Assembly (NCBI GenBank): GCA_000004695.1
Contig: CM000151.3
Location: forward strand, 7,296,001-7,360,000
DNA: 64,000 bases
Direction of reading: 5' to 3'
Origin: Dictyostelium discoideum
Taxonomy: Eukaryota
Part shown: piece after piece, positions 3,184 through 22,082 of the stretch
Layout: each line of letters starts with the position of its first letter
Position numbering within the stretch: the stretch's first letter is position 1
The notes under the pieces: model-generated
What the model saw: only the letters and a program-made list of their open reading frames with translations
Databases searched by the model: none
Told to the model about the DNA's origin: nothing
Made by a program: the position numbers and the translations under genes

Positions 3184-4080
3184 TCTTTATGTCGTTTAGT
3201 TATTTTAAGTCTATATTATCGATTGTCGGGTGAATGTGAGTTCCTCTCTGTGTGTTTTGTGTGTTTTTGTGTTTTGTGTGTTTTGTGTTGTGTTGCGTTT
3301 ATTTTTAAATTTTTGAAAATTTATTTTATTGTTTATAAAAGACGACAACGACGATAAAAAAAAATAAAAATTTAAAAAAAAAAAAAAAAAAAAATGAAAT
3401 TACAGGATGTATATAAGTTTTATGATTTTTTTTTTTTTAGTTTTTTTGTTTTTTCCACTGAAGATCTATTTCCCCAATTTTTTTTTTTTTTTTTTTTTTT
3501 TTTTATTCTCTAAAAAAAAAAGAAGTAAAGGATAAATGAAAAAAAAAATTTTTGAAAAAATTTGAAATTTTTTTTTTTTTTATTTTTTTTTTTTTTGTAA
3601 TTTTTTTATTTTTTTTTTTTTTCAATATTTTAGCAGTTAAAAATGCTTTTTTTTTGTAATTAATTTTTTTTTTTTTTTTTTTTAAAAATTTAAAAAAAAT
3701 GAAATATTAAGAAGTTCAAAATTAAATCGTAAAACCGAAAAAAGAATTATTTTTTTTTTTACTTTTTTTTATTTTATTATAATCAAAAAAAAAAAAAGAA
3801 AAATAAAATAAAATAAAATAAAAATATTAAAAAAAAATAAAAATAATAAAAAAATTTTCAAATTCATAGATAAATCAAAATTTTGATTTCTTTTTTCTAG
3901 ACCACCCAAAAAAAAAAAAAATCTTTTTTTTTTTTTTTTTTAATTTTTTGTTGGATTTATTTTTAGTTTTCAGTTTTTTTTTTTTTATTATTTTGAAATG
4001 AAAAATCTTTTTATTTTGTTTATTTTTATCTTTTTAATGTCAAACCACAAAATGTATAATTATATTTTATTTTAATATTT

Positions 4081-19143: not shown

Positions 19144-19929
19144 TTAATAATTTATTTCTAATGGTTCGAGTTTTTCTTGATTTTCAAGATCATCATCATT
19201 GTCATCATCATCACTATTATCTAAAATTAAACCAAATTTATCAATAATTGATGGTGGTGTATTTATAATATCTAATATATTTTTACTATTTTCTGGATTA
19301 AAATTGATTTGTTCATCTAAATTATTGTTTTTGTTGTTATTTTTATTATTATTATCTGTACAGGTTTTGTTGGCATTATTTGGTTGTTTTCTTTTTTTAT
19401 TATCATTATTATTATTATTTTCATTTTCATTTTCTTTATTTATTTCTAAAATTGGTGTATTTGTATTATTATTATTATTATTATTATTATTTTTATTATT
19501 GGATGTAATTTTTATATTGTTTTCACTTAATTCTTCTTTATGTTCTAAAATACCTAATGCTAAATTCTAAATTATTATTATTATTATTAAAAAGTGTTAG
19601 AGCTGAGCTAAAAAATTAATAAATATAAAAAAAGAAATAAATACCATTTGAATATATTCATCACCTTCTTTAATATTCTCTATATTAACATCTTCTTTAT
19701 TTTCAATTTTCTTTTTTAAATCAATGTTTGCTTCTTTTAATTTTGGTAAAAAATCTTTAACTCTATTTAAAACTGAACTTTCTTCCATTTTAAAGAAATT
19801 TGGTTTGGTTTTTGGTGCTTGTTGAGGTGTTATTAAAAATGGTGAAACACTTGGTTCTGTTAAACCATTATTAATTTTGGTTTTATTACTATTCTTTTCT
19901 AATTCTAATAAGTCTTTATTTACAATCAT
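19144..19929 (-). CDS. small conserved acidic protein, possibly DUF4598 / NOPCHAP1 (C12orf45)-like; 2 exons 19929..19645, 19566..19144
   Basis: ORF 19597..19929 joined through a phase-0 GTATTT..AG intron to an exon ending LEPLEINY*. Motif VLNRVKDFLPKLKEANIDL...DEYIQM|NLALGILEHKEEL resembles the FLPQM..AN...I(E/Q)M(D/N)LALGVLE block of C12orf45-family proteins; this family match is recalled from memory. The ORF-track entry 19199..19570 (+) is the antisense translation of exon 2. Confidence 0.5.
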
Positions 19930-20111
19930 TATTTATATATTTGTTGTTTATTATTTATTTATTTTTAAAATGTTTTTATTTTATTTATTTTATTTTTTTT
20001 TTTTTTGTTTCGTTTGTGGTGATAAAAATAAATAAAACGAGACAACCGAAAAAAGTTAAAAAAAAAAAAAAATGAAATTAAATTATGAAAAAAAAAAATT
20101 AAAAAACGAAT

Positions 20112-20149
<38 letters not shown>

Positions 20150-20223
20150 AATATTTTCAAACTGCTTTAAATAAATAAAAAAGTTCATTTAAATAAAATA
20201 AATAATTGTAAAATTTAATAATT

Positions 20224-20371
20224 AAGAAAGGTAATACCAATTTTCAATTGCCTCTTAATTTGAAAATAATAGTTAATGAAAAATGGATTATTTTAATAAT
20301 TAAAATAATCCATTATTCATAAATTATTATTTTGAAATTAAGAGGCAATTGAAAATTGGTATTACCTTTTA
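20224..20371. repeat. near-perfect ~148-bp palindrome (hairpin/cruciform-capable) in a divergent intergenic region
   Basis: Left arm aaaggtaataccaattttcaattgcctcttaatttgaaaataat and right arm attattttgaaattaagaggcaattgaaaattggtattacctttt are reverse complements with 1 mismatch. The central core ggattattttaat|aattaaaataatcc is a perfect palindrome centred at 20297/20298. Confidence 0.8.
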
Positions 20372-20821
20372 AAATAAATAAAAAAATTAATAATTGAAAA
20401 AATTAAAAATTAAAAAATAAATTTTTGAAGTATAATTTTATTTTCATTTATTAATTTTAACATTATATTATTAATGTTTTAGAATATTTTAAAGTTCTAT
20501 AATTGAATTTCTTTTTTTATTCGATTTAGAATTGGTGATCTTGAATTAATTGAGGTAATTATTAATGATCATCTTTTTGTTTTTGTGTTTTTTTATTAAT
20601 AAATTCCAACTTATAATAAAAAATCAAAATCTTTTTTAATGCTTTTTCCCACAAAATAAATAAAATAAATTAAATTTGATATTTTTAATGGGGATTAAAG
20701 GAGATTTCTTTTTTTTTTTTCAATTTTTTTTTTTTTTATAAAAATTTAATAATCACTTTTTTTCACTCACACTTAATATTTTTAATTTCACCATTTTTCT
20801 ATTTAAAAAAAAAAAAAAATA

Positions 20822-22082
20822 ATGAAAATTTTTATAATTATTTCTTTAATTTTAACAATTTTAATTATTCAATCAAAATCAAAAGAGTGTCCTTGTTCAA
20901 ATGTTGAGTTGTGTAAACCATTGGAAATTGGTCCAAGAAAAGAATTTATTGGATTTTCTGTAAATAGCACTTTCTATCCATACTATAATTGGGATCATTT
21001 GACAACTATTGGAATTTTTTATAGTGAAGATATTGAAGATGAATTACTTTGTATGGCTAAAACTAATGGTGTAAGATTAGTTTATAGTGCATTTTACCCA
21101 GTTGAACAATTATCAAATGAAACATATATAGATCAATGGATAAATGAAAAATTAGAACTTGTTCAAAATACATTTACTGATGGTTTAAATTTTGATGTTG
21201 AATATCCAATCACTGATCCAATCGTTGCACAACAATATACTCAATTAGTTGCTGCCACTAATAATGCTTTTAAATCAGTTAATCTTTATTATCAAATTAG
21301 TGTTGATGTGGCATGGGATGCTTCAAACTGTATAGATTATCGTTGTTATGATTATTTGGGACTTTCAAAAGCTTCTGATTTTTTAGTAGTTATGGATTAT
21401 GATATGAAGTTGGATGGATATTACTTCAAAACATGCCTTGCAAGTGCAAACTCACCACCTTCTTCAGTTTTATCTGGTATGGTAAATTTTACAAAACTTG
21501 GAATTGATGAAAGTTCATTAGTAATGGGACTACCATGGTATGGGTATGTTTTATAATGTTATTATTATTAAATTTTGTTTTTTTATTTTTTTTATTTTTT
21601 TTATTTTTTTTATTTTTTTTTAATCTCAAAAAGTAATATTTATAATTTTCATTTATTTTTTTCAAAATTCATTTTAAAAAAGATACAATTATCCATGTAT
21701 TGGCTCAAATTATACATTACAAACATTTGAATGTATTATTCCTCCTTCCAGTTATTTAGGTTATAATTGCACAGATGCATCAGGAATTGAAATTAATTAC
21801 TCAATCATTATGAATATGTTAAATGATACAGCAATACAAAATGGTGGTGTTCAATGGGATTCAGAATCAGAGTCACCATATTTTAATTTTATTGACTTAT
21901 TTTCTGGTACTCAACACCAAATGTGGTTTGATAATCCAGACTCATTAACCATTAAAGTCAATATAGCACGTACAATGAACCTTAGAGGTGTTGGTGTATG
22001 GAATATTGATCAACTTTGGGATGACCATTCTCTTTCATCTGGAATGTGGGGTGCATTAAATTCTTTCTTTAAAATTAATTAG
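20822..22082 (+). CDS. di-N-acetylchitobiase-like GH18 glycoside hydrolase, secreted; 2 exons 20822..21543, ~21752..22082
   Basis: Signal peptide MKIFIIISLILTILIIQSKS. GH18 catalytic motif DGLNFDVEYP (DxxDxDxE). LVMGLPWYG|YLGYNCTD resembles the chitobiase GVPWYGYDYTC block. The C-terminus YFNFIDLFSGTQHQMWFDNPDSLTIKVNIARTMNLRGVGVWNIDQLWDD matches the human CTBS C-terminus. The intron is phase-2 (GTATGT..CCAG). The acceptor position has a 1-nt uncertainty. Confidence 0.75.

Follow-up and report, generated by a model that had tools for sequence, protein, structure and literature searches.

A long quasi-palindrome between two divergent genes of Dictyostelium discoideum, a candidate lineage-specific inverted duplication

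Introduction

Long DNA palindromes are fragile, deletion-prone sites, as seen in work on SbcCD in E. coli and on Mre11-Sae2 in yeast, and A+T-rich palindrome centres favour the nucleation of cruciforms. Template switching makes perfect hairpins in a single event (PMC10710096), and such hairpins can seed new miRNA genes (PMC10710096, PMC8794818). Template switching also expands inverted repeats at yeast promoters (PMC13100816).

In dictyostelids the ncRNAs are enriched in G+C, and the miRNAs are mostly intergenic and species-specific; unusually long, near-perfect hairpins have been described as newly evolved miRNAs (PMC11014262). D. discoideum and D. firmibasis differ by gains and losses of whole miRNA 'modules', and the mode of origin of these rapidly changing modules is a question asked in Dictyostelium small-RNA work (PMC11014262). 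Transcription of the pri-miRNAs begins at a G that follows a T-rich stretch of up to 26 nt (Liao et al. 2018, PMC6161686).

Here we describe a 143-bp palindrome in an 892-bp spacer on chromosome 2 of D. discoideum AX4, between a NOPCHAP1-like gene (minus strand) and ctbs1, a GH18 gene (plus strand). All coordinates refer to the 64-kb stretch of DNA that was analysed, called the window below. The palindrome is real and striking but ordinary: a young, lineage-specific quasi-palindrome, which is a known kind of feature. What makes it of interest is mainly the possibility that it represents a newborn hairpin locus that can be dated.

Genomes compared

The AX4 locus was compared with seven orthologous loci of ~9 kb each, which were fetched via the GH18 orthologues. 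Two are from wild isolates of D. discoideum (L005 and L006) and two from isolates labelled 'cf. discoideum' (L001, GCA_054859235.1, and L004), which are described as cryptic sister species (bioRxiv 2025.08.01.668227). The outgroup loci are those of D. citrinum (L002), D. firmibasis (L003) and D. dimigraforme (L007). Gene order around the spacer is identical in all of the compared genomes.

The locus and its neighbouring genes

The sequence-only reading had placed the element between two divergent genes starting at 19929 (minus strand) and 20822 (plus strand), and both starts were verified. The minus-strand gene belongs to the NOPCHAP1 family; its orthologues carry PF15370, and it adjoins ctbs1 in every related genome compared. 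The exon beginning at 20822 is 100% identical to the AX4 glycoside hydrolase family 18 protein XP_642876.1. The features of the locus outside the palindrome are as follows.

19597..19929, minus strand: first exon of the NOPCHAP1-family gene, with the ATG at 19929, 298 bp from the palindrome
20030..20050, minus strand: conserved block AAATAAAACGAGACAACCGAA, present in all eight Dictyostelium genomes compared
20114..20146, plus strand: T33 run, 80 nt upstream of the palindrome, with no G directly after the run
20689..20707, plus strand: conserved block upstream of ctbs1, TGGGGATTAAAGGAGATTT, present in all eight Dictyostelium genomes compared
20822..21556, plus strand: first exon of ctbs1 (GH18, probable di-N-acetylchitobiase 1), with the ATG 453 bp from the palindrome

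The two conserved blocks are probably core or proximal promoter, or 5′UTR, parts of the NOPCHAP1-like gene and ctbs1. Outside these blocks the spacer cannot be aligned beyond the discoideum clade, and it is in this variable middle, outside the conserved promoter blocks, that the palindrome sits. The interpretation of either neighbouring gene is unaffected by its presence, and no tRNA genes were found near it.

Several other features of the region were recorded. The T33 run comes after a conserved AACGAATAG motif and is found in every isolate, varying in length; A-runs at 20058-20072 and 20805-20819 mirror it. In the second exon of the NOPCHAP1-like gene a long TTA/AAT triplet array (19397-19500) encodes an asparagine run, as Dictyostelium coding sequences typically do. 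In D. dimigraforme, and in none of the other species, the start codon of this gene is immediately preceded by a (TTA)n microsatellite of ~40 units (about 3420-3530 of the locus in that species). The deposited D. firmibasis annotation has, upstream of the NOPCHAP1-like gene, a model of 991 residues (1-2572 of its locus) in which Pfam finds both PLD and HSP33. In the other genomes this place is taken by a separate HSP33 gene of ~410-440 residues, and the D. firmibasis model is possibly a fused gene model. The first 2000 nt of the window have a G+C content of 32% and a G-over-C skew of +0.36, the average G+C content of the window being 22%.

Structure of the palindrome

Base-by-base pairing outward from the centre gives a palindrome of 143 bp (20227-20369) centred on base 20298. 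Its parts are listed below.

20227..20297, no strand: left arm (71 nt), recovered by pairing, repeat search and hairpin scan
20298, no strand: unpaired centre base, A in AX4 and T in both wild D. discoideum isolates
20299..20369, no strand: right arm (71 nt), an inverted copy of the left arm apart from 4 mismatches, delimited by pairing
20282..20314, no strand: perfect core of 33 bp, the inner 21 bp of which are 100% A+T
20340..20350, no strand: 11-nt right-arm segment AAGAGGCAATT, deleted in both wild isolates and flanked by AATT microhomologies

Around base 20298, 67 of the 71 positions of the arms are complementary (94%), the four exceptions lying at offsets of 17, 23, 26 and 36 nt. Immediately beyond the ends of the arms, three successive positions are mispaired. 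An inverted-repeat search, which extends further, returns arms at 20214-20297 and 20299-20382 with 89% complementarity and 1 nt between them. The earlier description of a near-perfect palindrome at this place thus holds, while its dimensions need revision: the length is 143 rather than 148 bp, the arms have 71 nt and four mismatches rather than ~74 bp and two to three, and the perfect centre, given as 26 bp, is of 33 bp, with an odd length and an A in the middle.

The palindrome can physically extrude as a cruciform or hairpin, and the A+T-only centre of the core would favour cruciform nucleation, as is generally known of such centres. The G+C content is 19% in the palindrome as a whole and 28% in the outer arms, compared to 12% in the remaining spacer and 22.3% in the whole window.

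The hairpin score of the palindrome is 59. The runner-up in the window, formed by pairs of A-runs and T-runs, scores 25, and 200 shuffles of the spacer gave a mean of 9.9 and a maximum of 18, in agreement with the view of the sequence-only reading that the length is beyond chance A+T self-complementarity. Folded as RNA at 37 C, the plus strand reaches -84.8 kcal/mol with 68 pairs (z = -19.7) and the minus strand -77.5 kcal/mol; folded as DNA the element reaches -59.8 kcal/mol (z = -18.6). That reading had also set beforehand a floor of ~80% arm identity, below which the structure would be put down to chance, and the 94% found here dismisses such an interpretation. It had further proposed that lack of a second copy combined with lack of conservation would argue for chance; the element is common to three D. 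discoideum isolates.

State of the locus in related genomes

Both wild isolates of D. discoideum carry the palindrome. In both, the right arm lacks the 11-nt segment and the same 4 nt are missing beside the palindrome centre; their hairpin energies are -54 and -45 kcal/mol, against -84.8 kcal/mol in AX4. At offsets 23 and 36, where AX4 has mismatches, the wild isolates still match the left arm, as does one of them at offset 17.

The two 'cf. discoideum' isolates differ from this and from each other. In L004 the left arm is missing together with the centre and with 18 nt of the flank on that side; what is retained is TTGAATTTCAGAGGCATTTAAAA, which matches the right arm at 19 of 23 positions and has right-arm orientation. 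This remnant implies that both arms predate the split of the L004 lineage. In L001, 58 nt at the syntenic site (3427-3484 of its locus) align to the left arm with 78% identity, and the divergence of this segment (~22%) matches that of the L001 flanks (~25%). No right arm was found in L001, where the best score of 11.5 is at the level of noise.

The spacers of D. citrinum, D. dimigraforme and D. firmibasis (461-604 bp) contain no arm-like sequence, their alignment scores being those of noise. The spacer of the discoideum clade is ~400 bp longer than that of D. citrinum or D. firmibasis. Downstream of the palindrome, about 81 nt of spacer (about 20497-20577) are present in AX4 and L004 and missing from L005 and L006, an indel which indicates that large indels are common throughout the spacer.

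Closely related isolates thus present one locus in three states: a single arm, a full near-perfect palindrome, and a palindrome partly or almost wholly deleted. Such a series is what would be expected if long hairpins arise in one mutational step and then decay.

Substitution rates and maintenance of pairing

Between AX4 and the wild isolates, substitutions amount to 5.5-6.3% in the palindrome and 4.7-4.8% in the spacer flanks, and gap columns to 11% and 15%, respectively. With the density of indels no higher inside the palindrome than in the flanks, no special instability is shown. Over the three D. discoideum isolates, 65 of the 71 pairs are invariant, five are broken by one-sided changes and one has changed on both sides, being T:A in AX4, C:G in L005 and C·A in L006. 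Pairing is maintained no better than at random: an equally good result came from 339 of 500 shuffles.

Parsimony assigns a single mismatch in the 71 pairs, a G·U at offset 26, to the ancestor of the three isolates. AX4 later gained three transversions, all in the right arm, roughly as many as the flank rate would predict. Neither the rates nor the pair counts in the three D. discoideum isolates revealed selection on the sequence or the pairing of the palindrome. The flank-like rates of substitution and indel, together with the pairing that is not maintained, indicate that the element behaves as neutral DNA.

Two further points concern the arms. At offset 17 (20281/20315; alignment columns 58/92) the right-arm base is A, C and T across the three isolates and the left-arm base is constant; two independent changes at one site are unusual given so few substitutions. 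Concerted evolution, for which the arms would have too few mismatches for their age, was considered and is not claimed: by our own estimate p is ~0.01-0.13, depending on the figure taken for the divergence of L004.

Proposed origin

We lean, by a little, towards the explanation that the palindrome is a lineage-specific inverted duplication, probably produced by a replication template switch and decaying neutrally, and that it is neither a regulatory element nor a transposon; both the template-switch mechanism and the absence of function are what we infer. The starting state would have been a single-copy intergenic segment of ~70 bp, such as that of L001. A reverse-complement copy would then have been placed directly beside it by a template switch, the nascent strand folding back to serve as its own template before returning. 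This would have occurred after the most distant of the cryptic 'cf. discoideum' lineages (L001) had diverged, and before the separation of L004 and D. discoideum proper and the radiation of the latter. Thereafter the locus would have drifted neutrally, with substitutions breaking pairs and slippage deletions removing pieces of the palindrome or nearly all of it, and with mismatches and deletions accruing independently in each lineage.

A template switch is expected to leave a single-copy source in an outgroup and both arms only in the derived lineage, and this is the distribution observed, with the left arm in L001; L001 could instead have lost a right arm by deletion. The arms are also expected to have been near-identical at their origin and to have acquired lineage-specific mismatches later, which is the history that parsimony gives for the three isolates. 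An exact, base-by-base reconstruction of the event and of the sequence that preceded it is precluded by the ~22% divergence of the single-arm outgroup and by the many indels of the spacer. Against a template switch it may be said that a copy of 71 nt is at the long end, stems of 30-55 bases having been those screened in PMC10710096. The G+C enrichment, which would fit a young RNA gene, the T33 run and the one compensatory change of T:A to C:G are counted against a neutral duplication.

Alternative explanations

The alternative that survives best, although we find it doubtful, is that the palindrome is an unannotated hairpin-RNA gene, which would encode a young miRNA or the precursor of endogenous siRNAs. 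Transcribed by Pol II from near the T33 run, its RNA would fold into a stem of ~68 bp, which DrnB/RbdB would dice to 21-nt RNAs. The stem-loop is highly stable on both strands and of suitable size; its -108 kcal/mol at 22 C for 152 nt, or ~-0.71 kcal/mol/nt, is at or above the range of D. discoideum miRNA precursors (-0.43 to -0.70). Like the dictyostelid miRNAs, it is intergenic and has a higher G+C content than its surroundings. The T-run upstream resembles the T-rich stretch before pri-miRNA starts, and it is possibly a transcription-start T-run of the Dictyostelium type, driving a plus-strand transcript through the hairpin; however, a G does not directly follow it. Purifying selection is likewise absent, with pairing eroding in all three isolates.

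Nor does the element appear in the small-RNA lists searched. Fragments of the arms, in DNA and RNA spelling, were not found in the supplements of PMC6161686, PMC4894637 and PMC11014262 or in the full texts searched. At permissive and gathering thresholds, Rfam gave chance hits below threshold, the best being MIR7696 with 24.6 bits against a gathering score of 83.

Two related possibilities were considered and set aside. By hairpin length and energy the locus does not match the unnamed failed ShortStack clusters of PMC11014262, which have listed energies of -82.75 and -170.87 kcal/mol; windows centred on the palindrome give -105 and -108 kcal/mol at 22 C. An inverted duplication of a target gene was considered on account of an open frame of 36 codons across the left arm, which is unremarkable (p ~0.15 over six frames, by our own estimate).

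A hairpin-RNA gene is compatible with the same mutational origin as the inverted duplication that we prefer. If the duplication is transcribed, its dsRNA stem of ~68 bp could be cut by the Dicer-like DrnB and would be raw material for a new small-RNA gene. That this is an undescribed proto-miRNA/siRNA locus specific to D. discoideum, caught within about one speciation interval of a single template-switch birth and with its precursor, newborn and decay states preserved in sister isolates, is a rather unlikely proposition. Small-RNA reads at this place would make the locus a dated case of the birth of an miRNA module; should there be none, it would be a useful negative control, a perfect promoter-adjacent hairpin that never became a gene.

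It is improbable that a non-autonomous DNA transposon (MITE, foldback or thug-like) inserted in the spacer and that the palindrome is its solo copy or what remains of it. The unit does consist, over its whole length, of a single long terminal inverted repeat, and its size is MITE-like; D. citrinum and D. firmibasis have a spacer about 400 bp shorter than that of the discoideum clade. D. discoideum also has poorly characterised families of DNA transposons, among them thug, which amounts to 0.1% of the genome (PMC5633606); thug elements were reportedly described in this species by Glockner and coworkers in 2001. TTAA occurs near both ends, though this tetranucleotide is common in DNA that is 88% A+T.

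Against an insertion is the lack of further copies. The 32-nt core of the arm has only two matches in the 64-kb window, which are the two arms themselves, and alignment of the arm with every 87-nt segment of the window on both strands gave a maximum local score of 16.5 over a noise mean of 8.5, so that not even a diverged copy was detected; none was found elsewhere in the seven ~9-kb orthologous loci. Metagenome, viral and prokaryotic genome collections, scanned for exact patterns, and plasmids and phages, searched by BLAST, gave no match, these collections holding no Dictyostelium genomes. The sequence ACCAATATTTTCAAACTGC, which closely follows the T-run and was considered as a third, direct and degenerate arm copy, scored 9.5, which is noise.

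The ends of the element and its state in the sister isolates also argue against a transposon. The positions just outside the arms mismatch, and there is no clear direct repeat that would constitute a target-site duplication. The longer flanking direct repeat (20166-20225 against 20369-20413) was rejected as a long duplication of this type, being not significant when compared to real A+T-rich sequence (p ~0.12-0.15): its local alignment score of 21.5 is reached by 11-15% of comparable pairs of A+T-rich windows. In L001 the half-element is contiguous with its flank and equally diverged, so the site is neither empty nor filled. The loss in L004 extends 18 nt into the flank and spares an internal segment rather than the termini, and is therefore not an excision footprint. 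The suggestion in the sequence-only reading of a MITE footprint accordingly finds no support, given the want of a second copy in 64 kb and of a convincing target-site duplication, and the one-armed sister isolate.

That the palindrome acts in cis as DNA, as a cruciform regulator or insulator of the bidirectional promoter or as a replication origin, seems to us highly improbable. It does lie midway between two divergent genes, its pure A+T centre favours extrusion, and an inverted-repeat expansion at yeast promoters changed the expression of GRE2 (PMC13100816). However, three related species keep the gene pair and the promoter-proximal blocks without the palindrome; the parts of the spacer that are conserved are those two short blocks and not the palindrome; and the element is nearly all deleted in L004 and evolves at the flank rate. 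The earlier suggestion of a regulatory element is thereby left unsupported, and in the sequences compared nothing was detected that would indicate selection for a role of the palindrome in the bidirectional promoter. For an origin-like structure, the third suggestion of the sequence-only reading, no indication was seen either.

Finally, the hairpin scores given above and the occurrence of the same palindrome in two independent long-read assemblies of wild isolates already refute the idea that the structure arose by chance or as an artefact of assembly or cloning, although weak self-complementarity abounds in the extremely A+T-rich local DNA (195 inverted pairs are listed for 1 kb).

Comparison with known systems

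The MITEs, foldback and thug elements share with the palindrome their size class and long inverted-repeat architecture. The palindrome differs in being single-copy in the loci searched, in having no target-site duplication and in the half-element at the orthologous site.

Like the fragile long palindromes, the element exceeds 100 bp, has almost no spacer, and has suffered three independent deletions in four related lineages. It differs in an indel density (11% of columns) that does not exceed that of the flanking spacer (15%).

[quoted passage not shown] 2024, PMC11014262) are, like the palindrome, intergenic, species-restricted and unusually long near-perfect hairpins, and the likeness extends to the orthologous spacer of D. 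firmibasis, which is shorter and without the module. Those two miRNAs are backed by small-RNA reads from both arms, whereas the palindrome is unlisted and its pairing is decaying.

The inverted-repeat expansions at yeast promoters (PMC13100816) overlap transcription-factor sites, and one of them altered expression, while the palindrome lies outside the conserved promoter blocks. Common to both are a lineage-specific inverted repeat upstream of genes and an explanation by template switching.

The template-switch hairpins and de novo miRNA loci of Monttinen et al. (2022, 2023; PMC8794818, PMC10710096) were screened with stems of 30-55 bases, whereas the present arms are of 71 nt with a spacer of 1 nt and are known from DNA alone. 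The Dictyostelium palindrome resembles these loci in consisting of an adjacent reverse-complement copy limited to one lineage, in its near-perfect state at birth, in its non-coding site next to promoters and in the mismatches acquired later.
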